The notes under the pieces were generated by a model, which saw nothing but the letters and a program-made list of their open reading frames with translations, ran no database searches and was not told the origin of the DNA. A program made the translations under genes and the position numbers. This document shows, one piece after another, positions 1-19,186 of a DNA stretch of 61,677 nucleotides. The stretch lies in IMG/VR virus record IMGVR_UViG_3300038327_000229, positions 1 to 61,677 of that record. One strand, written 5' to 3'. The DNA comes from a virus. Taxonomy: Duplodnaviria; Caudoviricetes. The stretch's first letter is position 1; each line of letters starts with the position of its first letter.

Positions 1-3000
1 ATAGAACGGGCGAATAAACTGAAAGCCGAGCAAGATCTCCTGACTCCAGAGGAGAAGGCAGCACAGAGGGCAAGCGAACGCGATCTTGTGGCCGAACATC
101 GCGAAAGGGTTAAGCGTGGCGAGGCTCTTCCGGAAATAGAGCAGCTGCGGCAACATAAGAAAAGACGACGAGAAGCGCAACAAGCCGCAGCCCAACAAGC
201 CGCAGCCCAACAAGCCGCAGGAGAGCAAGTCGCAGTGCAAAAAGCTGCAGCCGAGAAAGAGCTAGCCAAGAAAGCCGCAGCAAGCGCAAAGCGAACAGCA
301 ACAACAGCTACGGCAGCTACAGCGCGACAGGCTGGCTCAGTGGGAGCCTCATCAAGTTCCCCAGCCAGTGTGCAACAGGCTAGCTCAACAAGAACTTCAT
401 CTTCCCCAGCCTCACCGAGCTCACCAAGAGTAGTAGACAATCGAACTCCAGTAGCTGAACTTCCTATAGTAGATAGACAAAAAGCCTTACGGCAAAGACT
501 CAACAGTCTCGGTCGTGGATCCTCATCAAATCCGCTTAGATTTCTCTTTGATACTGAAGCAACAGATGTAGGATTCGCGCATAGAGAGAGGATCATAAAC
601 AAGGGCAAACTTGTAAAATATACTGGAAGAGATGGAGATCTGGGTACTAGGAGTGGGAATAAACCTATCATTCATGGGCAAACACAGTCTCAGAGAGCAG
701 TAGGAACTCAGATGCTACAGTTCTACGGAGGAACTGCTGATGAGATAGCAAACCAGACAGACACTATTTTTCAGAGACATATGGAGTTAGACATCCCTGA
801 CGCGATAAAAAGGGATCTAGGCAAGAGTCTTAGTTTTGATCTTCACGGCCGTGACGGCGAGGTTAAAAATACCTTTAACGCAGAACAAATACATCGAATC
901 ATGACTGACTCCAGTGACAGTCTTAGTGCTGACGATCTAGCAGCCAGAAAGGCGATGGGAGACCCAGGGGGACCTCAAGGAAAATTTCATATAACAGACC
1001 CAAAAGTATTAAAGAATATTACAGCAAGCAGATTGACAAATCCCACGGCCGGAATGGCCGGCGTTGGAGTTAATCTTGTAAACCATACTCTCAATCAAGT
1101 CGTAGGTAGAAGCGTATTTGAATCGAAGTATGGTCGTCCGGATACAGCTAGCTCTCAAAAGTTTGTCCAAGACTTTTTGAATAGAATGGTAAAGCTCCAG
1201 AAAGATGCTCCGGAAGGCGTCAGGCCACAAATAGAAGCATGGAATATTAACTATGACTTGATAAAAGCAGCAGAGCAAGTCGACATGTATGGGAAAGATT
1301 TAAAAATTGGGTTCCAGAATAAAATGCAATCTGCTAAAGATGTATTTAAGGCCCTATTCATTGGAACCGATGCACATAGCGCCGACTATCTAATAAAAGC
1401 AGTTGACGCAGCGGACAAAATAAAGGAAATAAGTTTTTGGAGATTAATAAACGATAATCAATATAATGTCCATAGTATAAATCACGAAGAGGTTGCAGCT
1501 GCGTTAGAAAACGGCCAAACAAAAGCACAGATACAGGACGCCGGAATAGAAGAGTTAAGGACTTCTAAAACTGGAGTTAAGACTAAATATATAAATCGCA
1601 ATACTGCGCTAAGAAAATTAGCTGATGATGTTGGAGGACAGAAGAACAGAGCGGCGCTAGCGGATGAATTTTATAATCGAATTTACGAAGGCGAAACTTA
1701 TAGTCGTAATGAGATTGAATCACACAAGAAAGGGAGAATAGGGCAGATAGTCGACGATGCAGTATCTATGACCCTAAAAATTAGGGAATCCTCTATCTCT
1801 CGAGACGGCAATATGATCGAAGCGTTGAGAAGGGGATCGAATTTATTGGCTAGTCAAGATGGTGGTGTGGATATCGCCAATAGAATATGGAGACCTACAG
1901 CAAAAACTTCCGGAATAATGGGTTTCGGGGTGGGTAAAGACGCCGAGTTCGCAGAAGGAACCGTCAAACAAATGATGTACGTGCTTGATAATTCTACGGG
2001 ATTTGATGGCGTTGGTGGATTCTCTCAAGGTGGATCGGGTAGAACAGTGGCGACCGGAAAGGGTGGAGCTATAGGGTCTCTGATATACGCTAAAGAGACA
2101 TACATGGAGACACATTCCGATAGCCAGCTATCTAATCATATGCGTGGATTATTCGAGAAGATAGATAAGGCAAGCAGGATAGGAGGGGCTGCCCACGATG
2201 CGAGTATAGATACTCGTCAAATGCACGCTATGATCAGCAGTGGAGGTATACTCGACGATATGGGGACACACGGGGCAACTACTGATATGATCGAGTTTAA
2301 CGGGATACTTACCGATGCTCGAGCTGCAGCAAGCTTTGAGGCAGGTGTAGATAGGTGGATGGTCAATGCCGACTTTGCTCCGCAAGGAAGCGGCGCTTCA
2401 GGAACAAGTAGCAATATACTCCAGGAAATTATTCCGGAGCCGCAAACAGCTGCTAATGCTGGCGACTTCTCAGGCAGAGGGCCACTGAATAGCGTAGAGC
2501 CTTTGGCGGGCAGACCTCGTGGATTAAAGGGAAGAGGAGGTGTTCTTGCCGGCGGCATATTGACGCTTGCAGGCTTAGCTCTTGTCGGCAATAGGAATGG
2601 TGGAATAAAACAGCCTGGGTCACAGTATAACTCGATTGAAGGAATGTCTCCTTCAGGAGATCCGCTTATCCATTCCTTTGGTTCAGGTAATGATAGCTTT
2701 GCTTCTCAGGCTATAACTAATTTAAAATACGGGACCGGATATGGTAGCAACACTCTTAGATCGTCCATGCTGGGTTATCGTGGAGACCGACTCAGGGACA
2801 TTCTGTTAGGTAGATCTTCTTTTGACGATTATACAAATTCTTCTGAGAAGGGCACCCTTGTACATAGTATCATAGAGGCAGAGTATTTAAAAAGAGACAT
2901 AGCCCAGTCTAGCGAGCATGTTGTACATAGCCCCGAGCTAGACGTAATGGGTCACATCGACTTGGTCTTGAACTCAGGAGTCCCTCTAGAGATAAAGTCT

Positions 3001-3588
3001 GTTGAAGATTTTGAAGCATTGGAAAACCTTAAGTCCCCCAAAGATGCGCACGTCTCACAGGCTAATTTCTATGCATATGCCCTGAAGCAGCCATACGCAT
3101 TAATTGGGTATGCTGCGAGAAATGATCCTAAAGGTAAAATAAAATATTTTAAAGTAAATACTGATATAAAGCGTGTGAGAGATGATGTTGAAGCCGTAAG
3201 AAGAATGATGGCAGACTTACGACGTCAAGGTTATAACACACAAAACTATTCTGCATATCAAGCAATGAAGGACGCGCGCTCTAGATTCACCCAAAATAAA
3301 TATCAGCAGAATGCTGCAGGCGCAGGTGCAGGGTTACCATCGGGGATGATCCCAGCGCCAGAAGACTATGGAGGGCATTCCGCTATAAAAGGACTAGGCG
3401 ATTATGGTAAATGGATGAAGAAGCTAGGATGGAGGCAAGAGAACAAGACACATCTCACTAATACACAGCAGTTTAAAAGCAAATCTAGGATAAGAGATCA
3501 GGGAAAACACGCAGCGTTGCATAGCAATGATGCGTTAAAATATAACGCACGTATCAGTCACCCTAATGGGTCTAGGCAAATAGCATAG
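1..3588 (+). CDS. Giant multidomain protein, 5'-truncated: low-complexity N-region, DEDDh/DnaQ-like exonuclease motifs, hydrophobic helix, PD-(D/E)xK (Cas4/RecB-like) nuclease
   Basis: Frame 1 has no stop from base 1, so the GTG at 88 is probably internal. Exonuclease motifs: FLFDTEAT (ExoI, 541-564), EAWNINYD (ExoII, ~1234-1257), AHDASID (ExoIII, ~2191-2211). Hydrophobic GGVLAGGILTLAGLALVG (~2536-2589). Nuclease motifs: GTLVHSIIE, GHIDLV, LEIKS, QANFY (2851-3072). Confidence 0.75.
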   Translation: MERANKLKAEQDLLTPEEKAAQRASERDLVAEHRERVKRGEALPEIEQLRQHKKRRREAQQAAAQQAAAQQAAGEQVAVQKAAAEKELAKKAAASAKRTATTATAATARQAGSVGASSSSPASVQQASSTRTSSSPASPSSPRVVDNRTPVAELPIVDRQKALRQRLNSLGRGSSSNPLRFLFDTEATDVGFAHRERIINKGKLVKYTGRDGDLGTRSGNKPIIHGQTQSQRAVGTQMLQFYGGTADEIANQTDTIFQRHMELDIPDAIKRDLGKSLSFDLHGRDGEVKNTFNAEQIHRIMTDSSDSLSADDLAARKAMGDPGGPQGKFHITDPKVLKNITASRLTNPTAGMAGVGVNLVNHTLNQVVGRSVFESKYGRPDTASSQKFVQDFLNRMVKLQKDAPEGVRPQIEAWNINYDLIKAAEQVDMYGKDLKIGFQNKMQSAKDVFKALFIGTDAHSADYLIKAVDAADKIKEISFWRLINDNQYNVHSINHEEVAAALENGQTKAQIQDAGIEELRTSKTGVKTKYINRNTALRKLADDVGGQKNRAALADEFYNRIYEGETYSRNEIESHKKGRIGQIVDDAVSMTLKIRESSISRDGNMIEALRRGSNLLASQDGGVDIANRIWRPTAKTSGIMGFGVGKDAEFAEGTVKQMMYVLDNSTGFDGVGGFSQGGSGRTVATGKGGAIGSLIYAKETYMETHSDSQLSNHMRGLFEKIDKASRIGGAAHDASIDTRQMHAMISSGGILDDMGTHGATTDMIEFNGILTDARAAASFEAGVDRWMVNADFAPQGSGASGTSSNILQEIIPEPQTAANAGDFSGRGPLNSVEPLAGRPRGLKGRGGVLAGGILTLAGLALVGNRNGGIKQPGSQYNSIEGMSPSGDPLIHSFGSGNDSFASQAITNLKYGTGYGSNTLRSSMLGYRGDRLRDILLGRSSFDDYTNSSEKGTLVHSIIEAEYLKRDIAQSSEHVVHSPELDVMGHIDLVLNSGVPLEIKSVEDFEALENLKSPKDAHVSQANFYAYALKQPYALIGYAARNDPKGKIKYFKVNTDIKRVRDDVEAVRRMMADLRRQGYNTQNYSAYQAMKDARSRFTQNKYQQNAAGAGAGLPSGMIPAPEDYGGHSAIKGLGDYGKWMKKLGWRQENKTHLTNTQQFKSKSRIRDQGKHAALHSNDALKYNARISHPNGSRQIA
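178..222 (+). repeat. Tandem 15-bp repeat x3 (caacaagccgcagcc) encoding QQAAA
   Basis: Seen directly; in-frame with the first CDS; the third copy ends in gga. Confidence 0.9.
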
Positions 3589-3597
3589 GAGGATAAA

Positions 3598-4152
3598 ATG
3601 GGACTACCAGGGTTGATCCAAAAATATGGCGGCCAAAAAATGGGGAGCTTCTTAACGAATATAGCCGATGACATTAACCCGATTCGATTACATGCGGGAA
3701 ACATGGCTCAAAAGGATCCAGATTTATATGGTCAGGCGAGAGGTGTAAAAGATCTAGTCAAACAAGGAATGAATCCTGACTCACCCAATGCGATGACCTT
3801 GTCTCAATACTTCAAAGGGAAGAAGATAGGTGCTAGGCTTTCAGAAGATCCAAAAACTCCGACAAGTTTTAGCGGATTCGTCGATGAAGAAGCTGATGCG
3901 ATCAGAGCATCAACAAGAACAGTCGCAGCTGGAACAATCGCTGCATTCGGATTAGCACCTATGGTTCTAGGTGAAGATAATTTTGTTAGTAGAACTATAG
4001 GAGCAGGGGCTACTGCTGGTATGCATATGGGTATAACAGCAGCAGCACTAAGATCTGGTAAAGGCAGTACTGCAGCAATGTTTGGTGTAGGCTACGGTGG
4101 ATTAGCTGCAGTAAACGCGATAAGGTCCGGCGATAATTTCGGCCCATTCTAG
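3598..4152 (+). CDS. Gly/Ala-rich protein with C-terminal hydrophobic helices (putative internal virion/membrane protein)
   Basis: Strong SD (aggagg) upstream; segments VAAGTIAAFGLAPMVLG and AAMFGVGYGGLAAVNAI. Confidence 0.6.
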   Translation: MGLPGLIQKYGGQKMGSFLTNIADDINPIRLHAGNMAQKDPDLYGQARGVKDLVKQGMNPDSPNAMTLSQYFKGKKIGARLSEDPKTPTSFSGFVDEEADAIRASTRTVAAGTIAAFGLAPMVLGEDNFVSRTIGAGATAGMHMGITAAALRSGKGSTAAMFGVGYGGLAAVNAIRSGDNFGPF

Positions 4153-4165
4153 ATAGGAAAATATT

Positions 4166-5401
4166 ATGTCTCTTGGGGGATTATTTTTGGGGGGTATGTT
4201 TTCTTCAGTTGCTAGGGTGACGAGAAACGCAGCGGCTGGCGCGAGGCAATACAGTAGGGCAAGACATGCAGCAGGTAGGGTCCGTACTAACCTGAATGCT
4301 GAAAACGCAGCTTTAGGACCACTGTCATCGAGAAGAGGTAGGCGTGGAGTTCGAGGAGCGCTAGATAGCGTACGGAACTCTCAGGCTCGCGGCCATAGAT
4401 CGCTAAATACTGCACATGATGATATAACAGCAGGGGTAGGTGGATTCGATAAAGGTACAAAGGCTGGAATGACCATGGGTCATCAGTTGACTAAGCTTGC
4501 TGCCATAGGTATTGGCGCGACTGCTGCTAATAAAAGTATATCATCATGGCAGGATGCATTTGGTGATAAGCAATCTGGCTTCACTAATTTTATGGCAGGC
4601 TTAACTAAATTTGGTATAACTGCTGCTGCGGGTGTTACAGGAGTAACTGCTATTGGCAGAACTGCGATATTGGCAAGCGGAAGATTCAGTAGTAAGACTG
4701 GTGGAGCCGCTGCAGTAAGCCGAATTAGAGATAGTATAAAAGGTGCAGCCTCGTCAGCGGACGATATGGCTCTGCTTGGCTCTGCATCTGGTTCTATAGG
4801 AAGATTAAGAAGGGTTAGGGCTGGAACGCGTAGAACATCTGCAGGTCGTCTAGCTCATCGTATGGGGGGACCCAATGCCTATCAGGGACTGCCAAGGCCA
4901 ACAGTAGGAGGAATGGGTGATTTGAGGAGTAGAGTTCAATCTCATAATAGACTCCTAAGCTCAGCCCAGCCTCTAGGCCGCCAAGCCAGAGAGGCAGTTA
5001 GGCGCGAGACGAGGATAGGCAATAAAGCTGCAAGGGCTGAAACTAGATTAGCGAAGAATGAAGAAAAGATAAGGATGTCGCACTCAATGAAGACTGCCAA
5101 GAATTTTGGCGCCTTTAAAAGTATACTATGGCCAGTGGGGAAATTTCCATTCGTGGCAGCGGGTGCTATGGTCGGACGTGGGTCTGTCTGGGGAAAAATA
5201 GATCCTACGATGACATATATGGGTGGAGCTATGGCTGCAGGAACATTAAGTGGTTTAGGCGTTGGAACGGCCGTAGGTATAGGATCTATCAAAAGAGGAA
5301 ATCTAAGAAGGACGCAAGAGGCGAGACCTCGGCCTCAAGAGAGAAGCTTCAGCAATATAAATTACAATGCAACACTCCATGCGCATAGAATGAATATGTA
5401 A
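4166..5401 (+). CDS. Very basic Arg/Gly/Ala-rich protein with hydrophobic segments (putative virion core/ejection protein)
   Basis: 411-aa ORF with SD (agga); Arg clusters (SSRRGRRGVRG, RLRRVRAGTRR) alternate with Gly-rich hydrophobic stretches. Function is inferred. Confidence 0.55.
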   Translation: MSLGGLFLGGMFSSVARVTRNAAAGARQYSRARHAAGRVRTNLNAENAALGPLSSRRGRRGVRGALDSVRNSQARGHRSLNTAHDDITAGVGGFDKGTKAGMTMGHQLTKLAAIGIGATAANKSISSWQDAFGDKQSGFTNFMAGLTKFGITAAAGVTGVTAIGRTAILASGRFSSKTGGAAAVSRIRDSIKGAASSADDMALLGSASGSIGRLRRVRAGTRRTSAGRLAHRMGGPNAYQGLPRPTVGGMGDLRSRVQSHNRLLSSAQPLGRQAREAVRRETRIGNKAARAETRLAKNEEKIRMSHSMKTAKNFGAFKSILWPVGKFPFVAAGAMVGRGSVWGKIDPTMTYMGGAMAAGTLSGLGVGTAVGIGSIKRGNLRRTQEARPRPQERSFSNINYNATLHAHRMNM

Positions 5402-5402
5402 T

Positions 5403-6170
5403 ATGCAATATAACCGACCAATAGATTCTCATGGATTCCAATTCATATCAACTGCATCTGACCATGAAAATATTGGTATAGGCAATTTAGTTGCCGACGT
5501 AACTCTGGCAATAACCATGGAGAGTCTTGGCGCCGGGCTCATAGGTAGACAAGGTATGGGCTCAGGGGGTAGGCCTCTGATGGGCATGATTCCTGGGATC
5601 TCGCCAGCAGGCTTTGAGAAGGGCGCCGGAAGATCTCTTCTAGAGTCAATAAATATAAGGGCAGGGACATGGAGGGGTACTCCTGGGTGGGGCCAGGGTG
5701 GTGGAGTACAAGGAGTTGTTACTGGATTTTCCCCGACCCATACTAATGTACAGCGTGTTTCATTAATACCAGGAGTCAGCGTCACTGGAAAGGGTGGTGA
5801 AAAGGCCTTACTTAACGCGTATAACGCAACTGCTGGTAGTCATAGGGGCCTTTGGGATACAATTGCCAGACCTAGAGATATAGCCAAAATGGGCTTTGGC
5901 TTGGGTCTTAAATCCTTATCCTCTGCATGGTTAATAAATGATCTCTTTGGTATGGGTTTTTCTGCTGCAAGTGGAGCGATACAAGGAATGTCTACATACT
6001 CTTATGACAGAAGGAACCAGGAGACGCCCGCGGAACATGACCTTGGTGACGGCTTCGCTCAGACAAGAGCGAGCTTCACACAAAGGCAAACTGCCATGGC
6101 CGCTATCCATAACTCACAAATGAACACCAGAGCAGCAATGGGTAACGAAGCGACGTTCATGCATGCCTGA
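5403..6170 (+). CDS. Gly-rich hypothetical protein (putative internal virion protein)
   Basis: 255-aa ORF starting 1 nt after the previous stop and overlapping the terminase start; Gly-rich hydrophobic segments. Confidence 0.55.
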   Translation: MQYNRPIDSHGFQFISTASDHENIGIGNLVADVTLAITMESLGAGLIGRQGMGSGGRPLMGMIPGISPAGFEKGAGRSLLESINIRAGTWRGTPGWGQGGGVQGVVTGFSPTHTNVQRVSLIPGVSVTGKGGEKALLNAYNATAGSHRGLWDTIARPRDIAKMGFGLGLKSLSSAWLINDLFGMGFSAASGAIQGMSTYSYDRRNQETPAEHDLGDGFAQTRASFTQRQTAMAAIHNSQMNTRAAMGNEATFMHA

Positions 6171-8202
6171 TAAAAAGAAGAATGAGATTAGGATTGAGGG
6201 CGAAAAGCCCATTAAAATAGGCATTGATTTTGGTGAAAAATATAGGCCAATGGATGACTATAAGGGATCCGACTATAAGCCTATGCTTGGTCGAGATTGT
6301 CATTTCTGCAGAAAGTGTATAGACTACTATCAAGATATGCATAGCAAGGGCTTTACTTCCGAACCATTTATACCTGCCTGTGACGGCGATTACCGACAGC
6401 TAGCTAAGAAGATGAAAAATCAAGGCTTATCTGACGAAGAGTTCGAGAACTATAAAATGCTACAAGATCCAGTTGCTTGGGCTAAGTTTGAATTTGACTG
6501 GGAGGCTAGATGGTATCAGAAAGAGGTCATGCGATGTTCATCTCAGTTTAAAGCCATTCGCGCAGGACGTCGTGTCGGCAAAACTGAAGCGATGAGTGTT
6601 CTTGCTCTTTGGAAATTGTTTACTAACGGCGGCCTTACTGATAGGCAGTTTGAAATACTTGTGCTTGCGCCATATCAGCCCCAAGTTGCAAAGATATTTG
6701 ATACTATGCGTGATTTTATAGGCAGATCCTCTACACTAAATATGCCAGGCATGATTAAGAGGAATGTCCTCAACCCACAAATGATTGAATTCAGCTCAGG
6801 TGGAGTTATTCGAGGCTGGTCTTCTGGTGCACATTCGGGCGCAAAATCCGATAAGGTTCGTGGTCAGGACGCAGATTTTATTATCATGGACGAAGTTGAT
6901 TATATCAATGACAGCGACATCGAAGTGATCATGGCGATAATGGCTTCTCACCCGACTTGCGAACTCATCGTCTCATCTACGCCTACTGGAATACGTAAAA
7001 AACTATATAACTGGTGTTGTGACAAGAGTCAAGGCTTTAAGGAGTTCTGGTTTATATCTGCGGAATCTCCTAGTTGGACTCCAAAAGTAGATCATATGTT
7101 TAAGCAGAACTACTCAAAGACTGGATACGAACGAGAGTTTCTTGCTGAGTTTGGTGACGAAGCTGAGGGTGTGTTTAGAAGCGAGGACGTTAACGCGTGC
7201 CTGGCTGACTACACTTATGAAGATTGCATCCCGCACGCAGAGTCTAAGTATGTTATAGGAGTAGACTGGGGTAAGACTACAGGTACGCACATAGTTGTTA
7301 CTGAGGCCATGAACGTAGATGGTCGACTCATGTATAAAACAGTAGACAAACATATAATACGAACTCAGGAATTTCAACAGATAGAAGCTATTAAGAAAAT
7401 AATGGAGCTTGACAAAGTATGGGGTAATCAAACTGCATACATCTATGTAGATGCTGGCTATGGACACGTCCAAGTTGAGATGATGTGGAAATATGACATG
7501 GATTATCCTAACGAACACACCAACTATAAAGAGCGTGTCAAGCCCATGACTATGAACTCTAATATAGAGATAACCGATCCAGTCAGCGGTATGCCTATCA
7601 AGAAACCAGTAAAACAGTTTATGGTAGATGCGTCATGTCGAACAATGGAGATGAAGCAGGTATTAATGCCTGTAGATGAAGATACGACCACAAGGATCGT
7701 ACCTAGCGAGATACCCTTCGCCAACATAGGTATTGTCCAACAGATAAGAGCATTCAAGATAGTTAAGTATAGTCCAAGCGGCGTACCTACGTATTCTCAA
7801 GACTATGAGCACACTGTTACCGCATGGATGCTATGTATTATGGGTCATATTTTAGAGTTTAGTGATATAAAAAAGATAGAACACGTTATGGATATTGCTT
7901 ATTCTATTGGTGTAGGTAGTGACCATGATAACGACTCACCATTTCCTGAGTTGAGTAATATCACTGAGCGTCAAATAGATTTAGAAGAGGCGAAGAAATT
8001 TAGTAAGAAAATGCAAAAAGATCTAAAGCCAGAGAAAAGGACAGATGAAGATAAAGAAACATTAGTAGGAGGAAACGACATAGGAGTGTATGTCGCTAGG
8101 AGACAGGCCACTAACAGATCTAGAGGAGATTCAGTTCAAGGTAGAACAAGATATCACGGTAACACTCCTAGGGGCAACCGGTTTGGTCGAGGTAACATCT
8201 GA
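6163..8202 (+). CDS. terL: Terminase large subunit
   Basis: Walker A AGRRVGKT, Walker B FIIMDEVD, coupling motif VSSTPTG, REFLAEF linker, RNase-H-like IGVDWG and YVDAGYG; upstream of portal. Confidence 0.95.
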   Translation: MPDKKKNEIRIEGEKPIKIGIDFGEKYRPMDDYKGSDYKPMLGRDCHFCRKCIDYYQDMHSKGFTSEPFIPACDGDYRQLAKKMKNQGLSDEEFENYKMLQDPVAWAKFEFDWEARWYQKEVMRCSSQFKAIRAGRRVGKTEAMSVLALWKLFTNGGLTDRQFEILVLAPYQPQVAKIFDTMRDFIGRSSTLNMPGMIKRNVLNPQMIEFSSGGVIRGWSSGAHSGAKSDKVRGQDADFIIMDEVDYINDSDIEVIMAIMASHPTCELIVSSTPTGIRKKLYNWCCDKSQGFKEFWFISAESPSWTPKVDHMFKQNYSKTGYEREFLAEFGDEAEGVFRSEDVNACLADYTYEDCIPHAESKYVIGVDWGKTTGTHIVVTEAMNVDGRLMYKTVDKHIIRTQEFQQIEAIKKIMELDKVWGNQTAYIYVDAGYGHVQVEMMWKYDMDYPNEHTNYKERVKPMTMNSNIEITDPVSGMPIKKPVKQFMVDASCRTMEMKQVLMPVDEDTTTRIVPSEIPFANIGIVQQIRAFKIVKYSPSGVPTYSQDYEHTVTAWMLCIMGHILEFSDIKKIEHVMDIAYSIGVGSDHDNDSPFPELSNITERQIDLEEAKKFSKKMQKDLKPEKRTDEDKETLVGGNDIGVYVARRQATNRSRGDSVQGRTRYHGNTPRGNRFGRGNI

Positions 8203-10136
8203 TGGGTATATTCTCTAAAAAACCAAAACCCTTTGAAAGAGAGCGGAGTCTTACTGAAGATCCTCCTAAGGGGTCGCCAGTAATTAATACGAATATAGAG
8301 GACGAAGCAGAAAAGGAAGTGCAGGAGATATTTAGTGATATAAAAGATAATATAATGTTATCTAATGAGTTGCTTAACTTATTAGATGAGAAGTGTAGGG
8401 CAACGCATGTCCCTGTAGATCCTATCGTGCAGGACGTAAGGGCCGCCGTAGCAAGAAAAGATCCATCGGAAGCGGATGGCGCAAGAATAAGTTTTCATTT
8501 ATTTCTTACTGCAGTAAAAAAGTATGAGCAGGTTCAACTTAATTACACTCTAACTATTTCTGAATCGATGACAGGTAATCCTAGTTTAGACTCTACTACT
8601 ACTAGGAGATTTAAATACAGGATTATTCATGGAATTTCCGATAATGATCTTTTAATGTTTGATTCAGTCTATTTATTGAATTATGCAATACATAAATTCC
8701 AAGATATATTTAATGTGCCAGAGATACTTAAAATATCTCCACCATCAGAACATCCAGAAGGAGCTGCGTATGGTGCAATGAAATTAGTCATTGCTATTGC
8801 TTTTGCCTCTGCGATAGATGTGCTAAACAAGGAGTTGATTCAGGCAATTCGTAATGTTGGTCGTGGTTCATCATCATCTTCTGTTTCTTCATCTGCCCCA
8901 GAAGAATTTACATTTAGTAGAATGGATGAGTTAGCCTTAGAGAAAATATCTCAAAATGATTATAAAATAATATTAGATTATGTGATTGGATATATCTATC
9001 CATCTTTAGATCCAAAGTATGATCTCTGGATAAACTATGTTGGTCTTAGGCAATCTAGAAATACATCGGTAGATATGTATAGGTATTATCCTACATATTC
9101 TCATGAAGCTAATATAAGACTGAATCTTGGAGACAAGTTACCTCGATCAGGCAATGAAGATTATGTATCAGACCATTTGAAGGATGAGTTTCTAGCAGCC
9201 TTTAAAAATAATTTTAAAAATATGTGTGCTACAACATCTCAATCCATGAGATTCAATTCTAATGAACAAAGAGCTCTTATAAACAACGTAGCACAAACTA
9301 GCGCCTATCGAGTTACTAAAGATCAGATATGCTGCTTATTCAGAATAATGGCTAAGCACGGTATCTCAGATAAAAAAACTATTAAGCTAATTAAGGTAGT
9401 TTTAAGAGCCGCGTCAAAAACGCTCTCTGTAAATTTATCCGCCAGGTACGCAAAGAAAACTGTTGCACAGCTATCTGGTGCAAATGCAGATTTTATGTAT
9501 ATAAAACATATAAAGCATAGGGTGATGGGCGTCATAGGAAGGATAAATGATTCTTGGTTTTCTAAAATGAATACACTTATAATGGAAAATCTTTATGTAA
9601 AATGCAAATTATTCCATGATATGTTTAAATCTATGTTAGATTTTGTCGAAGATATTGTTAGTGAAATAGGATCTAATGAGACAGATAGCGAAAAACAGCA
9701 GTCTATCATAGTATGGAGAAATATTGAGACCGTACAGACGAAATGGCAGCTAAGAGGACTAAGCCATATGGACATGATATTATCCTCTATATTAGAACAG
9801 TCTCTTGATGAATGCTATAATATGTCTGACGATGTTGTAGATAATATGATAGATGAGGTTGTAGGTGGGTTAAGTATACCGTCGAATCAGTATACAATTG
9901 ATATTCCTGATGATTTACGAGAAAGGTACTTTTCTGACAATAAGCCGATAAGAGTTAGTCAAAGCTCCAGCCTCTTTGGCTTGAGCAATACTACGACTAT
10001 TCCGGCTATTGATAAGTTTAATCAGCCAGAAACATCAGAAGAAGTGATAAGGAACATACTTAAGACTTGTAAAATGGAAATTAGCGACGAAGAGATTAAA
10101 AAGATGTTAAAGGAATCAGATGGGTCTTCTCGGTAG
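8202..10136 (+). CDS. Hypothetical helical protein between terminase and portal
   Basis: 644-aa ORF coupled to terL by TGATG and overlapping the portal start; no motif recognised. Confidence 0.6.
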   Translation: MGIFSKKPKPFERERSLTEDPPKGSPVINTNIEDEAEKEVQEIFSDIKDNIMLSNELLNLLDEKCRATHVPVDPIVQDVRAAVARKDPSEADGARISFHLFLTAVKKYEQVQLNYTLTISESMTGNPSLDSTTTRRFKYRIIHGISDNDLLMFDSVYLLNYAIHKFQDIFNVPEILKISPPSEHPEGAAYGAMKLVIAIAFASAIDVLNKELIQAIRNVGRGSSSSSVSSSAPEEFTFSRMDELALEKISQNDYKIILDYVIGYIYPSLDPKYDLWINYVGLRQSRNTSVDMYRYYPTYSHEANIRLNLGDKLPRSGNEDYVSDHLKDEFLAAFKNNFKNMCATTSQSMRFNSNEQRALINNVAQTSAYRVTKDQICCLFRIMAKHGISDKKTIKLIKVVLRAASKTLSVNLSARYAKKTVAQLSGANADFMYIKHIKHRVMGVIGRINDSWFSKMNTLIMENLYVKCKLFHDMFKSMLDFVEDIVSEIGSNETDSEKQQSIIVWRNIETVQTKWQLRGLSHMDMILSSILEQSLDECYNMSDDVVDNMIDEVVGGLSIPSNQYTIDIPDDLRERYFSDNKPIRVSQSSSLFGLSNTTTIPAIDKFNQPETSEEVIRNILKTCKMEISDEEIKKMLKESDGSSR

Positions 10137-12294
10137 AATAGCGTCAGTGTTCTCTACTACTAAACCAGAGCAAGAGGATCTTAGGCTTGTCCGCAAGACT
10201 AAGCCTTCTAGCGTAGAGTCTACTGTTAAGGAATCTCCGCGACAAGCTGTATCTACGCTCTACTATAAAACGAGCCTAACAGCAAGAGGCTACCCCAGTC
10301 TAGGGGGAGACGGCAACTATATCACTCCAATGTACAACCTTGGGGAAATAGGCAAGACGCTAGATGTAGAATCGTTCTTTGCTGCTTCTGTTAGAAGGCA
10401 CAGAGAGCTATCCATGAAAGAAGGATGGCATCTGCACGGTAAAGATAAAGAAGCTATAGCGTATGTAAAAAAACGATTTGAAGAGATAGAGCTTATAACT
10501 GGCGAACCTATCTCTGCTATTGTAAGAGAGCTTTTAACTAACTTGATTGCCTACGGCAATGCTATCCTTGTAATAAAGAGAGACCCTCTTAGGTCTAGTG
10601 GTTCTCCTATTAGGATGTTCGGTAAAACGATGCAGCCTATCTCTGGATTATATCCAGCAGATCCTACTAGTATGGCAGTAAAAAAGAATGACTTTGGCAG
10701 GCCAGTAGAGTGGAAACAAAAGATATGGGACTCTGAGAAAACTAGAAAGTTCAGGGCTTCCGACGTTGTACACTTCCATTTGGATAGAAAGTCTGGCTTT
10801 ACCTTTGGTACACCATATATAGTGCCTGTTCTTGAAGACATCAGAGCTTTGAGAAGGCTAGAGGAACTAGCCGAGCTAGTAACCCACAAGCATACATTCC
10901 CTCTATTCCATGCCAAGGTAGGCTCAAAAGATAAGCCAGCTGGATATATAACATCTCCAGATGGACAGACACTCTCAGAGGTAGATGTTATTGGAGCACA
11001 AGTAGATGCATTGCCTCCAGAGGGCGGGCTAGTCACCTCTGAAAGAGTAGAGATAAACATGCTTGGCACAGAAGGCCAGGTATTAGATTTAGAACCCTAT
11101 CTCTCTCACTTTGAAAGTAGAGTTCTTGGCGGCCTGAGGTTATCTGGAATAGACCTAGGCAGAGGCGATACTGCGAATAAGGCTACTGCGCAGACGGTTA
11201 CAAAGAATTTAGTCGATGCATGTTCAGAAATACAGAATGTATTTTCTGAAATGTTCACCGCCAAGATAGTTGATATCATACTATTAGAGGGTGGATTTAA
11301 CCTAGTCAGCGATGTACGGGTCTCTCTGAGATTCCCAGACATAGATAGAGAAGAGGCTAGAGCTCATCAGAACCATGGTATTCAGCTATTTATGCAGAAT
11401 GCTATAACAGAGGATGAGCTAAGAACGGACTATCTCAATCGAGAACCGTATGCTGATGGAGATAGAAAGAATACTTTCCACGAGCTATATACTAAGCCAT
11501 TAGCCGAGATTGGTGCAATGAACGAACAGGGCCCAGGCAGTTCACAAGGATCCGCCAACACCGTCACCAATAAAGCTCGCCCGACTAACCAGCATGGTAC
11601 TGCCACTACTAAAAAATCAGTTGCTCAGAATAGTCTGATGATGAAAGAGCTATTCAATCAGTTCTCTTACTCATGGTCAGAAATGTGCGAGGATATCTGT
11701 GGCCTTAGCGCTAGAAACGGCAAGTACAATAAGGCCACTAGGTCTAATGATATAAAGAAAATATTAATATTAAAAACAGATGCAATGATGTCTGATGCAA
11801 AAAAGTACTTATTGCCTGAAATAGAGAGCGGAGCAAAGGAAGCACGCAAAGATATACATACCAATAAGCTAGTATCTAAGGACGATATCAGCCTATTTTT
11901 GTCTAAGCACATACGTATACCGTTGATAAAGCTCAATCGTAAGGCTATGATAATGTTGAAGATAGATTTAGATAATGAAGTAAAACTTGACTTAGACCCG
12001 GCTAAGGCGTCTAGCATCTTTGACGCATTAAAAGTTGAGTTAGATATGATGACAGTCCAAACCGCGGACTTTGCTTATAAGTACGGATACATGACTACGT
12101 TACAGAAGGCTGGTAGGAAGAATATCAGAATTATGTATAATAGCATTAGCGAAGATGGAACACTTGATCTAGAGAAAGAAGTGGTTATGCCGATTGCTTC
12201 GGTAAGCAAAAGAGATGTTTCTGGTCCACATATACGGTTAAATACCACATGTGTGATAGATGAAGATATAAATATCAACAAGGGAGATGAGTAA
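10120..12294 (+). CDS. Portal protein with C-terminal extension
   Basis: LIAYGNAILVIKRD and DVVHFHLDRKSGFTFGTPYIVPVLEDIRALRRLEE match the portal pattern; lies between terL and protease. Confidence 0.85.
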   Translation: MGLLGRIASVFSTTKPEQEDLRLVRKTKPSSVESTVKESPRQAVSTLYYKTSLTARGYPSLGGDGNYITPMYNLGEIGKTLDVESFFAASVRRHRELSMKEGWHLHGKDKEAIAYVKKRFEEIELITGEPISAIVRELLTNLIAYGNAILVIKRDPLRSSGSPIRMFGKTMQPISGLYPADPTSMAVKKNDFGRPVEWKQKIWDSEKTRKFRASDVVHFHLDRKSGFTFGTPYIVPVLEDIRALRRLEELAELVTHKHTFPLFHAKVGSKDKPAGYITSPDGQTLSEVDVIGAQVDALPPEGGLVTSERVEINMLGTEGQVLDLEPYLSHFESRVLGGLRLSGIDLGRGDTANKATAQTVTKNLVDACSEIQNVFSEMFTAKIVDIILLEGGFNLVSDVRVSLRFPDIDREEARAHQNHGIQLFMQNAITEDELRTDYLNREPYADGDRKNTFHELYTKPLAEIGAMNEQGPGSSQGSANTVTNKARPTNQHGTATTKKSVAQNSLMMKELFNQFSYSWSEMCEDICGLSARNGKYNKATRSNDIKKILILKTDAMMSDAKKYLLPEIESGAKEARKDIHTNKLVSKDDISLFLSKHIRIPLIKLNRKAMIMLKIDLDNEVKLDLDPAKASSIFDALKVELDMMTVQTADFAYKYGYMTTLQKAGRKNIRIMYNSISEDGTLDLEKEVVMPIASVSKRDVSGPHIRLNTTCVIDEDININKGDE

Positions 12295-13961
12295 TGAACA
12301 GAGAAGTTCGATTTACCGATCTCTTTGGTATGCCAGAAAGATCCGATATATATACTGACGCTAACAATATTTTAGAAGATTTATATTCTTCTATTAATGC
12401 CCCTAGCTTCAGGGTAACTATTAAAGCAACTCACTCCGGCTACTTACTCAATAATCGTGTTTATCCTGGTAGTGGAGTAAAAGCAGGTGCATCTTCTTGG
12501 GTCTCCAAAGACAATGGAGGCACAGCTGGTTATGACAAACCATTCCTGAAGCATCACGATTCTAAATCTGAACCGATAGGTAGAATAGATTCGCAAAAAT
12601 TTGTACAGCTATGGGAAGATGATCGATTTAAGAACGATTGGAAGAATCCAGATCATGGTACAAATCCGGGATCTGGATATATCGTTATAAGTGGAACTGT
12701 TTCTGATAAAGATGCACAACAAAAGATACTAGACGGACGATATAAAACTGTTTCTACTGGACAAAGCAGCAACAAGGCATATTGCTCCATATGTGGCCAT
12801 GATTGGCTAAGTGATACTGACGAAGAAGAAGTCTGTAATCACAGACCAGGAAGAGTCTACGACCTAGAAGGAGTAAAATATAGAGCTTATCTTGTTACAG
12901 GTAAGATGAAATATATGGAATGCTCATTTGTGAACCACCCCGCCAATGAACTCGCAGGAATATTAAGCGCAGATTTTGATAGCGCTATAGTTCCAGAATC
13001 AAAAGAACAAACAGTAGAAGTTGTTACCGCAGATACTCTTGGTGGAGTCTGCTCAATAGTGCTAGCGGACTCAGAAGGCAGGGTGACAGAATTGATTAGA
13101 TCTCCAGACGATAAAGATGAAATTCCTTATGGGCAAGATAACGCAAAGCGTGCTGTAAGGGTTGCTGTTCCTGAAGGATTCGATATGGATAAAGATGGGT
13201 CACGCAGCAAAAAATTAGATTGGCCTAAGTCTCTTGGTCTAGGCGACACAAACGCCAACTACAATATAGAGGAGATGGCTGCCAGCATTAAAAATATGCT
13301 AAAACATGAAGTAATTAAGGAGCTGGCCGGCAGTTCATTAACAAGTAATTCAAAAATCAATACCGATAAACAATCAGGAGAATTAAATGATCCTGAAGGT
13401 GGGAAGGATGCTCAAAATATTATGAGTACCAAGAAAGAGAACGAGATTAAAGATACCGATGTTGCGAAAAATACGGATGATACGGATAAGCCTCTAGATA
13501 GGACAGTTGTTGTCTTGGAAAAGGCTTTAGAAGATAGTCAGTCTAGAACTGCAGAACTTGAAGCAGAACTAGCGAAGGCAAAGCAGTTGTACGACACTAA
13601 GATAAGTGAGTACAATTGCTTAATGGATGAGAATGCTGCCATTACTGAGGAATTCAAAAAGCAGCTCGCCTCTCAACTGGTCACTATGCAAATGCAACTC
13701 CATAAGCCGCAGGTGAAATCGGTAGCCGATCACCAAAGCTTCGGAGAGGCAGTGACTCATGTTGCAGCGAGAAGTGTTGAAAGCCTTAGAGATAGCATTG
13801 AGGATCTAGTGCCTGAGCTAGCAAGTAGTTTCAAGTCTAATGGATTACCATCTTTCATAAAAGATAGGGTTGAGGAGAAACCTCCTGTGGCCAAATCTGT
13901 GAAAGAGGAAAATGTATCGACTATCAAGAAAACAGACATTGATCCAATGGATCAAATTTAG
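12294..13961 (+). CDS. Prohead maturation protease with C-terminal scaffold-like coiled coil
   Basis: ATHSG..NNRVY, KPFLKHHD..EPIGRI, KILDGRYKTVSTG, CSICG..CNH and ECSFVNHPA; heptad-rich C-terminus; follows portal. Confidence 0.85.
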   Translation: MNREVRFTDLFGMPERSDIYTDANNILEDLYSSINAPSFRVTIKATHSGYLLNNRVYPGSGVKAGASSWVSKDNGGTAGYDKPFLKHHDSKSEPIGRIDSQKFVQLWEDDRFKNDWKNPDHGTNPGSGYIVISGTVSDKDAQQKILDGRYKTVSTGQSSNKAYCSICGHDWLSDTDEEEVCNHRPGRVYDLEGVKYRAYLVTGKMKYMECSFVNHPANELAGILSADFDSAIVPESKEQTVEVVTADTLGGVCSIVLADSEGRVTELIRSPDDKDEIPYGQDNAKRAVRVAVPEGFDMDKDGSRSKKLDWPKSLGLGDTNANYNIEEMAASIKNMLKHEVIKELAGSSLTSNSKINTDKQSGELNDPEGGKDAQNIMSTKKENEIKDTDVAKNTDDTDKPLDRTVVVLEKALEDSQSRTAELEAELAKAKQLYDTKISEYNCLMDENAAITEEFKKQLASQLVTMQMQLHKPQVKSVADHQSFGEAVTHVAARSVESLRDSIEDLVPELASSFKSNGLPSFIKDRVEEKPPVAKSVKEENVSTIKKTDIDPMDQI

Positions 13962-13974
13962 AAGAGGTAATTAA

Positions 13975-14907
13975 ATGGCTATTCGAACTGGAAGAGGCTA
14001 TGGGAAAATTCATCACCCATACCAAGAACTTTACGAAGGTGTACGTCCTTCGATTCAAGGCCTCAGGGCTGCGAACTTTCTCCCTGTCGCGATGTTAGAC
14101 AAGTTGCATGATGATGACCCCATCGTCCTGCTTCCTGGAACATTCGTTGGTAGGTTAAATGAGACTAATGGTCTTAGCGCAACCGATTCATTCTCGGATG
14201 CAGAAGAAGCTGCTAGGGCTGTTGTTCCTGCCTTTTATGGCACATACAAGGTAACATACGGAACACATGATAGTGATTTTGGCACTCCAGACATAGATGC
14301 TAATGGTGCCAATATTGTCGCAGCTACCGAGGGTGCGAGCACGGAAGTTGTAGGACCTGTTAGACCTTTAGGCGTTTTAACCGCTCCGGTTTATTCTAAC
14401 GCGCTCAAGACTAAGTACACGAATTACAGTCGTGATTTGATGCCTTCTGTATTAATGGGTAATTACTCTGTTGTTATTCCTGCAATGACTGCTGGAGAAC
14501 ATGCCATTGAGCCAGGGGACCTTGTCAGGGTGGGCGGAGCTAACGCTCTTGGAGAGAACTGGACTCCTCTATCCCCCAACACGGGTGTAGCTTCACCAGG
14601 CCGGCTAATCGCCTACGATGGTGCTGTAGCTACTGCTAGCTATGTCGTTGGTCGGTGTATTGACAAGTACGTTGTTGGTAGTATCGCTGGTGCTGACAAT
14701 ACCAAAGTAAGCACATTACTCGCTGCTGGTGGAACTATAAGTAGTCAGAATACAGATCATCAGTTTAACACCCTTAAGAAGGTGCAGACTGTGCCTGGTT
14801 TAGGTTTGAGTGGTTCTGGTACTCAGGGAATTCCTGCAATGTTTGAGCATGCTACAATTGATAGCGCTGATAATTTCTATGCTCTTGTAATCAAAGTGGA
14901 TCTTTAA
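13975..14907 (+). CDS. Capsid decoration/cement protein (putative)
   Basis: Between protease and MCP; SD gaggt; Gly/Pro/Val-rich beta-type sequence (IEPGDLVRV). Confidence 0.6.
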   Translation: MAIRTGRGYGKIHHPYQELYEGVRPSIQGLRAANFLPVAMLDKLHDDDPIVLLPGTFVGRLNETNGLSATDSFSDAEEAARAVVPAFYGTYKVTYGTHDSDFGTPDIDANGANIVAATEGASTEVVGPVRPLGVLTAPVYSNALKTKYTNYSRDLMPSVLMGNYSVVIPAMTAGEHAIEPGDLVRVGGANALGENWTPLSPNTGVASPGRLIAYDGAVATASYVVGRCIDKYVVGSIAGADNTKVSTLLAAGGTISSQNTDHQFNTLKKVQTVPGLGLSGSGTQGIPAMFEHATIDSADNFYALVIKVDL

Positions 14908-14916
14908 GGAGAAAAA

Positions 14917-18420: not shown

Positions 18421-18756
18421 GTGGCTAATAATGGAGAATCAGGGGCCAGAGCTTTCGGTAGCCTGGCTGCCGTAATAGCTTTAATCGGAGGTATGTGGGG
18501 GCTGCTTAACCAGCAGGAGTTAAGTCTACAGAGACAGATTGCTCCAATAAGGATTAACCAGGAAATTATGTTAAATGATTTACAAAAACTTGAAGAAAGA
18601 CTTCAAAATCATGTAAATGATGGACATCCTGAGGCCTTGGAGTTGTTGCTAAAGGGTGATATAAAGAATATACAAAAAGAGATAGATAACATGAGAGTTT
18701 CGCTCAATGAATTAGGCAGAAAGTTGTCTTCTCTGGAAGTAAGAAAGTCTCAGTAA
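18421..18756 (+). CDS. N-terminal TM + coiled-coil protein (i-spanin candidate)
   Basis: AFGSLAAVIALIGGMWGLL followed by heptad repeats; SD aggag. Confidence 0.5.
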   Translation: MANNGESGARAFGSLAAVIALIGGMWGLLNQQELSLQRQIAPIRINQEIMLNDLQKLEERLQNHVNDGHPEALELLLKGDIKNIQKEIDNMRVSLNELGRKLSSLEVRKSQ

Positions 18757-18884
18757 TGATGTTTCTATCTATACTAGGATTAAGTATAATCTGCTTAATA
18801 GGGTGCAATAATCCTAGAGTGATAATGAACCATTGGGTACATTGGATTTATCCACAGTACGAGCCTTACGAGGAGGAAGAATGA
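18756..18884 (+). CDS. 42-aa lipoprotein missing from the ORF track (o-spanin candidate)
   Basis: MMFLSILGLSIICLIGC-NNPRVIMNHWVHWIYPQYEPYEEEE*; lipobox LIGC; overlaps the upstream stop (TAATG) and the downstream start (ATGA). Confidence 0.6.
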   Translation: MMFLSILGLSIICLIGCNNPRVIMNHWVHWIYPQYEPYEEEE

Positions 18885-19186
18885 AAATAGTTAGTATCTC
18901 TTTGTTATGTTTAGCAATATCCGGTTGTGCAATTTTTGGCCAGCCAGCATCGGAACTTGAAACAGATGCGTTTGTTAGGCCGCTAGATATCGTTGGCGAG
19001 GGAACAGACGCTGTAGTAGTCGAAACCGGAGAACTGGCAAGTGCTGAAAAAATAGCCCCACTGGCTGCACCATTTCTCGCTCAGTGGGGTACTCTAGTTG
19101 TTGGGGTGGTAGGCATTTTAGCAGGCTGGTATACTAGAAAAAGAAAAGAAGAGCTCGAGATCTCTTTGAAGGGGACTAATCTATGA
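18881..19186 (+). CDS. Lipoprotein with C-terminal TM helix (unimolecular-spanin-like topology)
   Basis: True start is ATG 18881 after SD aggagg; MKIVSISLLCLAISGC lipobox; C-terminal WGTLVVGVVGILAGWY then TRKRK. Confidence 0.55.
   Translation: MKIVSISLLCLAISGCAIFGQPASELETDAFVRPLDIVGEGTDAVVVETGELASAEKIAPLAAPFLAQWGTLVVGVVGILAGWYTRKRKEELEISLKGTNL

Follow-up and report, generated by a model that had tools for sequence, protein, structure and literature searches.

Enzymes that phages deliver with their DNA, among them the virion RNA polymerases of N4 and phiKZ, T4 Alt and the internal proteins, set the course of an infection in its first minutes. We know of no virion-delivered exonuclease pair, and literature searches for such a pair, or for a fusion of the kind described below, returned nothing relevant. 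Nuclease domains have nevertheless been placed on virion proteins. In the lineage concerned here, passages of Hardies et al. (2007, PMC2147016) report that the hub protein of a relative (BtI1) bears a staphylococcal-nuclease domain, and argue for an exchange of enzyme domains between stand-alone genes and virion proteins; the searchable text of that paper does not mention gp113-116 or '145'. According to sections of Iyer et al. (2021, PMC7824862), T4 gp4 is a nuclease with the restriction endonuclease fold that is associated with the virion and needed for packaging. Here we describe a gene at the left end of IMG/VR virus record IMGVR_UViG_3300038327_000229, a linear record of 61,677 bases that was analysed at its full length and is referred to as the window. 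The gene encodes a DEDDh exonuclease domain and a cysteine-free PD-(D/E)xK nuclease domain in one large protein. Both folds, the invariance of the catalytic residues and a fixed position at the head of a morphogenesis block establish a two-nuclease enzyme, and the family of its second domain is otherwise built into a proteomically verified virion protein, gp145 of Bacillus jumbo phage 0305phi8-36.

The source of the window is an uncultured jumbo myovirus, distantly related to 0305phi8-36. Its closest cultured large terminase (terL) is that of Moorella phage MTATph1 (33% identity), followed by those of the Bacillus 0305phi8-36-like jumbo phages. PHROG scans identify the plus strand as a myovirus morphogenesis block, and CheckV estimates completeness at ~32%. 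A related genome of 180.8 kb (G001, 93% complete) served as comparison genome and positive control.

The open reading frame (ORF) for the dual nuclease is cut by the contig end. The original prediction, made from the sequence alone, started the protein at a GTG codon at base 88; both that start and the resulting size were wrong, and the codon was rejected, because frame 1 is open to base 1 and the nearest homologue (P0002, 1795 aa, 99% identity) has 600 further residues upstream and is continuous through the window's first codons. Residues are therefore numbered here from the first codon of the ORF, which equals the earlier numbering plus 29. Judged from P0002, the full-length protein would have ~1800 residues (~1795), of which the window holds the C-terminal two-thirds. 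The true 5' end of the source genome is likewise taken from P0002, an exact search of metagenome contigs with the window's first 40 bases having given 0 matches. The overall domain order is a HAD-like phosphatase (off-window), a disordered linker, an expanded DEDDh domain, a hydrophobic helix, a conserved linker, a Cys-free PD-(D/E)xK domain and a basic tail. Homologues of 967-999 aa start right at the ExoI motif, which makes exonuclease, helix and nuclease the conserved core.

A word-indexed search returned 21 homologues of the window protein at E <= 5e-117, and conservation was read from an alignment of 22 sequences spanning 31-99% identity to it. In 22 of 22 sequences D184, E186, N415, D419, H732, A734, D737, H955, D987, E997, K999, Q1020 and Y1024 are invariant, so that every Exo and PD-(D/E)xK residue listed in the original prediction passed the conservation check proposed there. 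Chance occurrence of the Exo motifs was rejected on this invariance and because both domains fold into the expected architectures. When modelled domain by domain, the first resembles DEDD exonucleases (Z to 10.4) and the second Cas4 and lambda exonuclease (Z to 13.8).

The wider family is large. Scanned in full with HMMER, 1.84 billion representatives yielded 154 matches, most of which share only the C-terminal nuclease, and many of them are 2000-4400 aa long. Conventional searches were less informative: the window protein matched only low-complexity noise in Pfam and nothing in PDB by phmmer, and a profile (A2) searched against PDB returned coiled-coil noise only. In tblastn searches of 50,697 GenBank phage records, P0008, P0051 and the C-terminal region of the window protein had no match, and P0035 had a single weak one, to an Eggerthella phage exonuclease. 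Related-locus searches started from the single proteins P0002 or P0111 found no loci, whereas alignment queries did recover them.

All three Exo motifs are present in the frame-1 translation where they had been placed, at spacings of 235 and 313 aa. The domain that carries them is unrecognised by sequence searches of Pfam, NCBIfam and PDB; for instance, the window protein has no match to PF00929 at E<=1, the Pfam gathering threshold not being reached. An AlphaFold2 (AF2) model of residues 165-850, built from 21 sequences, reached a mean predicted local distance difference test score (pLDDT) of 69.5 and a predicted template-modelling score of 0.70. With the whole 686-residue model, Foldseek found 0 matches at E<=0.001 in PDB (TREX1 ranked 16th, E 1.1) and 0 in BFVD. 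The fold was resolved only by a VIA-align search against all representatives, in which the top 50 matches are nearly all DEDD-type 3'-5' exonucleases, polymerase proofreading domains included (Z 10.4-6.7). The best is exonuclease I (1fxx; Z 10.4, 183 aa, root mean square deviation (rmsd) 4.0). Pol III epsilon (1j53) aligns at Z 9.9 over 170 of 174 residues with an rmsd of 3.3, using model residues 15-588, a range that takes in model D20/E22 and H568/D573; TREX1, Cap18, the DinG exonuclease domain, RNase T and 3'hExo are also among the matches.

Each of these alignments covers model residues ~10 to ~595, which implies that a canonical core of ~175 residues is assembled from segments spread over ~580 residues. 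The wide spacing of the motifs had been put down to large insertions, and the secondary structure of the model bears this out: strand 3 and ExoII are separated by ~160 inserted aa of mixed alpha/beta structure, and ExoIII is preceded by a helical insert of ~240 aa. In the model, then, the DEDDh domain is expanded about threefold by two insertions, yet its core assembles; as far as the fold alignment shows, the motifs come together in a DEDD site rather than failing to form one. A metal-dependent 3'-5' exonuclease activity is predicted by analogy.

More compact relatives link the domain to named families. P0035, of 609 aa, just reaches the Pfam RNase_T cut-off (24.4 bits vs 24) and continues into a hydrophobic stretch or helix and the same C-terminal nuclease, while in P0051 a 'DNA polymerase exonuclease subunit' PHROG is joined to that nuclease. 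A profile that includes such compact sequences aligned all three Exo motifs to the TREX1 homologue 9mrd (E 0.012). The hidden Markov model (HMM) of the expanded exonuclease itself matches 34 of the 165 collected proteins.

The second domain holds a complete PD-(D/E)xK set, as had been claimed, consisting of H955, D987, E997-I-K999 and Q1020-xxx-Y1024. Its fold is well defined in an AF2 model of residues 840-1195, in which pLDDT exceeds 90 over most of ~918-1090. Foldseek matched the model to the SSO0001 Cas4 (4ic1, 4.7e-7) and to lambda exonuclease (3slp, 5e-7). VIA-align gave Z scores from 13.8 to 10.5 over its whole range of matches, among them 4ic1 (13.8), LHK-Exo (12.8), Cas4 in a Cas4-Cas1-Cas2 complex (12.6), lambda exonuclease (11.6), MGME1 (11.4) and Dna2 (10.7). 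At the sequence level, phrog_1706 ('CRISPR/Cas system associated') matches residues 949-1067 at E=2.2e-13, the PADLOC Cas4 models match the domain at E near 1e-5 and a profile matches the Cas4 structure 4r5q at E 0.0038. The Cas4 model TIGR00372 scores 23.1-23.3 bits, far below its cut-off of 65 bits.

The absence of cysteines around this domain, also part of the original prediction, extends to the entire protein, with 0 Cys in 1195 aa, and the iron-sulphur (Fe-S) ligands of Cas4 are missing with them. Without cysteine there can be no Cas4-type 4Fe-4S cluster. Family scans of the window ORFs turned up no cas1, cas2 or CRISPR context, and the related loci show the same phage cassette. On these grounds (no Cys, the TIGR00372 score and no cas context) a bona fide Cas4 was rejected, and the domain is a Cas4/RecB/lambda-exonuclease-type nuclease rather than a member of the Cas4 family. 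The same evidence bears on the idea that the protein is a counter-CRISPR device. In CRISPR adaptation prespacers are trimmed by two nucleases, Cas4 and a DEDDh enzyme, and a phage fusion of both might corrupt spacer acquisition; the best family-level sequence matches are indeed to Cas4 models, and P0035 matches a Cas-associated DEDDh model of PADLOC at 1.7e-9. PADLOC, however, holds defence models only, which biases its best matches, and with a Cas4 score so far under the cut-off, no Fe-S cluster and no CRISPR context in the scanned ORFs, this explanation is hardly credible.

Between the two domains the original prediction placed a membrane-type helix. A Gly/Ala/Leu-rich hydrophobic helix is present at residues 846-864 (GGVLAGGILTLAGLALVGN), and its position and character are conserved; its transmembrane nature is marginal, with a 19-residue Kyte-Doolittle mean of 1.62 against a threshold of ~1.6 for a membrane segment of ~19 residues. 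The equivalent helix in 24 close homologues scores 1.24-1.76, often with an internal Lys, and among the distant homologues P0025-P0035 a 19-residue stretch of at least 1.2 occupies this position in only 2 of 11. The segment is predicted helical at pLDDT <50 and may be a membrane anchor or a protein-protein anchor. The ~50 residues that follow it and the basic C-terminal ~95 residues, which include SRIRDQGKHAALH, belong to the best-conserved portions of the protein even though they are predicted to be disordered, a combination that suggests interaction surfaces.

The N-terminal side is more variable. In the window, the linker ahead of the exonuclease gives only weak low-complexity Pfam matches, and the first residues of the exonuclease model (165-176, model 1-12) have pLDDT <50. 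An AQQAA repeat at window positions ~190-240 (plus strand) exceeds that of P0002 by one unit, a minor length polymorphism within low-complexity sequence. Upstream, at residues ~230-430 of P0002, are the HAD-like motifs DIDST, LWTDR and IIDN/IIDD, visible in P0002-P0004. This region resembles viral HAD-type clusters of the ESM Atlas (DUF2608, Acid_phosphat_B, HAD_PNKP and T5 dNMPase; feature score 0.91-0.93), and the Pfam Acid_phosphat_B model reaches it at E 0.054, below threshold. P0029 and P0065 begin instead with DUF4406, which is nucleoside 2-deoxyribosyltransferase-like, and the short forms carry neither. Judged by family, these accessory domains would act on nucleotides or DNA ends.

The connection to the virion comes from the second nuclease domain. 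When the window ORFs were searched against the collected nuclease-domain proteins, only one matched, the gp145-like giant, with 47 of 164 (E 1e-17 to 1e-62). Homology to this ORF flanks the nuclease domain on both sides in 41 of these proteins, with a junction at residue ~1050-1065 of the ORF (~nt 37140-37190). The nuclease of ~170-220 aa is thus an insert at residue ~1057, and at this site the window ORF runs from '..GELRLPGTA..' straight into '..YDAVDRFMVLSDVAPHSEAYK'. The insert and the window's own nuclease domain are related over 199 columns, from the RxSxLG motif onward (hhalign 99.7%, E 3e-25). The cultured representative is gp145 of 0305phi8-36, a protein of 1930 aa with 0 Cys that has the tail chaperonins gp143/gp144 on one side and gp146, the tape-measure candidate, on the other; GenBank annotates it as 'identified as virion protein by mass spectrometry'. 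It matches the broad nuclease HMM at 1.4e-43 and the catalytic-core HMM at 1.5e-17, and it retains the motifs GTKIHEQ, GGFFDL, VDIKT and QQLNFY.

The core HMM finds no nuclease core in the gp145-like proteins of the window and G001, both of which encode the separate protein, and none of nine near-complete (84-100%) jumbo genomes with nuclease-bearing giants has the expanded exonuclease domain (positive control G001, 6.5e-115). A strict either/or pattern was rejected as not universal, since the giants of Moorella MTATph1 (CDS0026), WH1 (gp096) and ME3 (gp035) have no match to the core HMM. Taken together, the distribution is evidence, at the level of sequence, that this nuclease family is a module of jumbo-phage virion proteins. 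In the window, the two further giants at 38641-44958 and 44959-52437 (plus strand) correspond in position to gp146, the tape-measure candidate, and to gp147, the hub that degrades peptidoglycan; the three giant ORFs measure 1547, 2105 and 2492 aa.

Composition is in keeping with this. The Cys count is 0 in the window nuclease and in the other 23 close homologues (967-1934 aa). Among the 164 proteins with the nuclease domain 114 are Cys-free, as are 35 of the 59 that have at least 1200 aa, and the domain itself lacks Cys in almost all 164. Over 40 window ORFs the mean is 0.46% Cys; those without any include the nuclease, the three ORFs after it, the capsid protein and two of the giants, and terL has 12 Cys. 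The G001 nuclease homologue, at 0.22%, falls inside the range of nine PHROG-annotated virion proteins (0-0.51%) and below 17 annotated enzymes (0.45-2.64%).

The gene also keeps its place. In 26 related loci (9 viral and 17 metagenomic, some duplicated; 16 with upstream sequence) the order is ribonucleotide reductase (RNR) or sigma factor, a ~254-aa protein with four cysteines (4-Cys), nuclease, w184, w411, w255, terL, w644 and portal. Wherever upstream sequence exists (16 of 16 loci), the nuclease is directly preceded by the 4-Cys gene, often with a stop/start overlap; in 25 of the 26 loci w184 comes next after the nuclease. In the window, too, three closely packed ORFs separate the nuclease from terL, which has the same orientation, in agreement with the predicted location in the virion operon and away from replication genes. 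Because the 4-Cys gene always precedes the nuclease, it is expected just off the 5' end of the window. Its product has the motif CRDxxCPxxxKCPL..DCPVE (examples are at L006:8865-9626, L010:6657-7547 and L011:7971-8723) and corresponds to gp112 of 0305phi8-36 (hhalign 99.2%) and to Moorella CDS0247 (98.4%); searches of PDB and Pfam gave no identification. The L009 form (6079-7854) is 591 aa long, and an intein-like insert separates its first Cys pair from its second.

The interval between nuclease and terL has a counterpart in 0305phi8-36, where gp113-gp116, Cys-free and G/A/S-rich like w184, w411 and w255, lie between gp112 and terL. GenBank notes identify gp113, gp114 and gp116, the positional analogues upstream of terL, as virion proteins by mass spectrometry. 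The w255 family matches gp115 (hhalign 89.8%) and Moorella CDS0252 (95%); hhalign comparisons of the w184 and w411 families with gp113, gp114, gp116 and the Moorella neighbours gave nothing significant. The equivalence of the segment from gp112 to terL points to an old virion-gene cassette into which the nuclease gene was inserted. The three proteins have glycine-zipper-like hydrophobic stretches, and their C-termini share with that of the nuclease a loose A-x-(L/I)-H-x-(N/S/H) pattern. The L010 terL (12937-16122) has 1061 aa and is a probable intein carrier, given extra matches to PHROGs that are also found in giants with inteins; that of L009 (13790-16945) is split into four consecutive ORFs.

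Such a position could also be that of a packaging or maturation nuclease that is left out of the virion and works with the terminase on concatemers, trimming branches, gaps and ends or making terminal repeats. T4 endonuclease VII, T4 gp4 and T7 gp3/gp6 are packaging or maturation nucleases in their phages. Every locus has the gene between those for the 4-Cys protein and terL, an interval that in L011 also contains an endonuclease VII gene, and there are weak leads (Pfam Terminase_4, E=0.082; Atlas score 0.86) towards a small terminase for the 4-Cys protein. IMG/VR assigns the class 'direct terminal repeats' to 4 of the 10 related jumbo genomes examined, and 0305phi8-36 has a repeat of 6479 bp; T4 gp4, as cited above, is a virion-associated nuclease that packaging requires. 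A role confined to packaging would leave the hydrophobic helix, the Cys-free composition and the presence of the domain in a tail-module virion protein unexplained, however, and the cultured relatives package their DNA without a dual nuclease. We regard it as unlikely.

Transcription appears to join the nuclease to the head genes. In eight aligned loci a GC-rich hairpin with a T-run comes right after the RNR gene, and a conserved motif follows ~25 nt later. A scan called the hairpin at L038:8336-8413, with a 14-bp stem; the same strong terminator-like structure is present in L024, L026, L029, L031, L034 and L035. The 16-mer TAGTGTARAATATATA occurs in exactly one copy in each of seven loci and is followed by a conserved leader of ~170 nt with a second small hairpin and then by the 4-Cys gene; the region is a candidate promoter and leader for the morphogenesis operon. 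No intergenic plus-strand terminator-like site was found in the window between bases 1 and 16377, from nuclease to capsid gene, and we infer a single transcription unit that runs from the 4-Cys gene through the packaging and head genes (terL, portal and capsid). A sigma-70 consensus scan of the window stayed below shuffle expectation.

A further possibility is a membrane-tethered late nuclease that is not packaged and degrades host or superinfecting DNA while its N-terminal domain processes nucleotides, for salvage or superinfection exclusion. Two polarities together would reduce linear DNA to mononucleotides, the N-terminal fusions (HAD-like or DUF4406) are nucleotide-directed, and of the 16 loci whose upstream sequence is available, 13 have an RNR gene two positions ahead of the nuclease. 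G001 further encodes three glycosyltransferases and a thymidylate-synthase homologue, which hint at modified DNA and could mark phage DNA as self; multisubunit RNA polymerase beta-like genes are also present in this genome. Several features argue the other way. The terminator-like hairpin stands between the RNR gene and the operon; a single membrane-spanning helix would put the two domains on opposite sides of the membrane; and the gene travels with morphogenesis genes, whereas host-DNA degradation is usually an early function, as in T4, T5 and T7. This makes an unpackaged tethered enzyme quite improbable.

Replication and recombination offer another role, in which RecE- or lambda-exonuclease-like resection is combined with a proofreading-type exonuclease and the gene is a neighbour of structural genes by chance. 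The folds would suit it, being those of lambda exonuclease, RecE, LHK-Exo and polymerase proofreading domains. In G001, though, the replication genes (primase-helicase, UvsX-like recombinase and DNA polymerase) are on the opposite strand and have a Cas4-like nuclease of their own, a stand-alone protein of 355 aa with 6 Cys beside the primase-helicase (G001:C1:102615-103682, minus strand). Family scans of the window ORFs detected no annealase-like partner among the neighbours, and the position of the dual nuclease is fixed in 26 loci. A replication enzyme is accordingly very improbable.

We return to delivery with the virion, which the original prediction had put forward as an injected, membrane-associated dual nuclease. 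The dual nuclease has stood up, both domains being real with intact catalytic residues, while membrane insertion is marginal by hydropathy. Injection gains indirect support from the embedding of the nuclease domain in gp145 homologues at the very site where the window copy lacks it, and from a Cys-free composition like that of virion proteins. The chance that the protein is produced late, incorporated into particles and set free in the host cell on infection is, in our judgement, about even. In this proposal the nuclease gene would be transcribed with the terL, portal and capsid genes from one promoter, and its product would become part of the virion and enter the cell together with the phage DNA. 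By analogy, the two active sites would have opposite polarity, 3'-5' for DEDDh and 5'-3', or endonucleolytic on ends, for the Cas4/lambda-exonuclease type. Both strands of a linear DNA end could then be degraded or resected without a helicase, with the hydrophobic helix holding the enzyme at the entry site (membrane) or on a partner protein. Possible targets would be the DNA of the host or of a competitor, or the terminal repeats of the phage itself.

A more general version holds that the lineage carries a portable Cys-free nuclease module in its virion, either in a tail-lumen giant (the gp145 type) or on an expanded DEDDh domain with a membrane-seeking helix, and that the module is ejected with the genome and acts at the entry site within seconds, destroying host or rival DNA or resecting the phage's own terminal repeats for circularisation. 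We advance this tentatively, as somewhat less than an even proposition.

Several observations weigh against delivery with the virion. The helix at 846-864 is conserved and hydrophobic and, as a transmembrane segment, marginal. Nucleotide-directed N-terminal domains are more typical of cytoplasmic enzymes. The giants of MTATph1, WH1 and ME3 show that the nuclease domain is dispensable for a gp145-type virion protein, and an active nuclease beside packaged DNA would need a safeguard. The window offers no meaningful second copy of the promoter-like 16-mer, so that late timing follows only from co-orientation with the morphogenesis genes. No homologue with the DEDDh part occurs among the 50,697 GenBank phage records, and the proposed link to the virion draws on domain sharing, composition and gene position.

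Coordinates of the features discussed are collected in Table 1. Away from the nuclease, the plus strand of the window encodes at 23617-26997 a protein of 1126 aa that consists mostly of Ser/Thr/Val/Ala-rich tandem repeats (with units such as TSTSVTTSALSVVTDLRGSIVTEGTTVSATLVDT) and may be a fibre or decoration protein; over this region GC is locally raised, GC skew is reversed and long spurious antisense ORFs appear. Two small plus-strand ORFs after the capsid genes, at 18421-18756 and 18833-19186, have strongly hydrophobic N-termini (Kyte-Doolittle 1.95 and 2.12), and the second begins MKIVSISLLCLAISGC.., a lipoprotein-like signal with a lipobox.

Table 1. Features of the dual-nuclease gene and of the morphogenesis block in the window.
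Feature	Coordinates	Strand	Evidence and remarks
Dual-nuclease coding sequence, 5'-truncated	1..3588	+	1195 codons + stop (stop 3586-3588); frame 1 open from base 1
Low-complexity linker, residues 1-164	1..492	+	Charged, Ala/Gln-rich, Ser/Thr-rich; joins off-window HAD-like domain to exonuclease
Expanded DEDDh (DnaQ/RNase T-like) domain, predicted 3'-5' exonuclease, residues 165-800	493..2400	+	Two large insertions; AF2 + VIA-align
ExoI motif D184-x-E186 (FLFDTEATD)	550..558	+	Invariant 22/22
ExoII motif W414-N415-x-x-Y-D419 (WNINYD)	1240..1257	+	N415, D419 invariant; W414 at least 90% conserved
ExoIII motif H732-x-A734-x-x-D737 (HDASID)	2194..2211	+	Invariant; 'h' of DEDDh
Conserved Gly/Ala/Leu-rich hydrophobic helix, residues 846-864	2536..2592	+	Kyte-Doolittle 19-residue mean 1.62
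Linker NRNG..SPSGDPL.HSFGSGND..	2593..2748	+	Dense invariant columns 864-916; predicted unstructured, pLDDT <50
Fe-S-less PD-(D/E)xK nuclease, Cas4/RecB/lambda-exonuclease type, residues 917-1100	2749..3300	+	phrog_1706, Foldseek, VIA-align
Basic C-terminal tail (..GDYGKW..SRIRDQGKHAALH..SRQIA)	3301..3585	+	Conserved columns to S1191/R1192; pLDDT <50, predicted disordered
w184 (184 aa)	3598-4152	+	Cys-free, Gly/Ala/Ser-rich (34-37% for w184, w411 and w255); conserved in related loci
w411 (411 aa)	4166-5401	+	As w184
w255 (255 aa)	5403-6170	+	As w184
terL, large terminase	6163..8202	+	phrog_2 1.9e-33; Pfam Terminase_6N; start overlaps preceding ORF
Portal	10120-12294	+	PHROG
Major capsid protein	14917-16377	+	PHROG
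Sheath	28642-30192	+	PHROG
gp145-like giant virion protein	33993-38636	+	1547 aa, 0 Cys; lacks nuclease core; homologue of 0305phi8-36 gp145
Baseplate wedge protein	54065-55204	+	PHROG

Both folds, DEDDh and PD-(D/E)xK, are already known. What is new is the threefold expansion of the DEDDh domain, its fusion through a hydrophobic helix to an Fe-S-less Cas4-like nuclease, and the evidence for the nuclease family as a module of jumbo-phage virion proteins. The shared nuclease core of gp145 ties a protein of an uncultured phage to the cultured and proteomically characterised 0305phi8-36, which makes the idea testable at the bench. The family also forms a large Fe-S-less branch of Cas4-like nucleases that is now labelled 'CRISPR/Cas system associated', though nothing ties the branch to CRISPR, and its partner here is a DEDDh fold that insertions have enlarged threefold.

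Compared with the DEDDh enzymes of PF00929, such as E. coli ExoI, Pol III epsilon, TREX1, RNase T and CBASS Cap18, the window protein shares the D,E,D,H,D motifs and the RNase H-like core, but the core is stretched over about 580 residues by insertions and has no Pfam match. With Cas4 (SSO0001, 4ic1; Pcal_0546, 4r5q; type I-C) and the RecB-family nucleases (AddB, AdnAB, Dna2, Exo5) the second domain has in common the PD-(D/E)xK core and QxxxY; unlike them it is Cys-free, lacks cas context and is fused to a DEDDh domain or, in relatives, embedded in giant virion proteins. The Cys-free fold is also that of lambda exonuclease, RecE, LHK-Exo and MGME1, whose Z scores (12.8-11.2) are a statistical tie with Cas4, although sequence matches favour Cas4-type models over these families. 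As in AddAB and RecBCD, two nucleases of presumably opposite polarity would act on DNA ends; here there is no helicase or ATPase domain, and one nuclease is DEDDh instead of a second RecB type. T4 gp4 and the BtI1 hub nuclease, in so far as the cited passages describe them, are precedents for nuclease domains on virion proteins, but they belong to unrelated folds or families and sit at other virion positions. A further counterpart is 0305phi8-36 gp145 with its 47 metagenomic homologues, which has the same nuclease family, is also Cys-free and comes from the same phage supergroup. There the nuclease is an insert in a tail-module protein of ~2000 aa and has no DEDDh partner in any of the nine genomes, whereas here it is the C-terminal part of a separate protein encoded beside terL.

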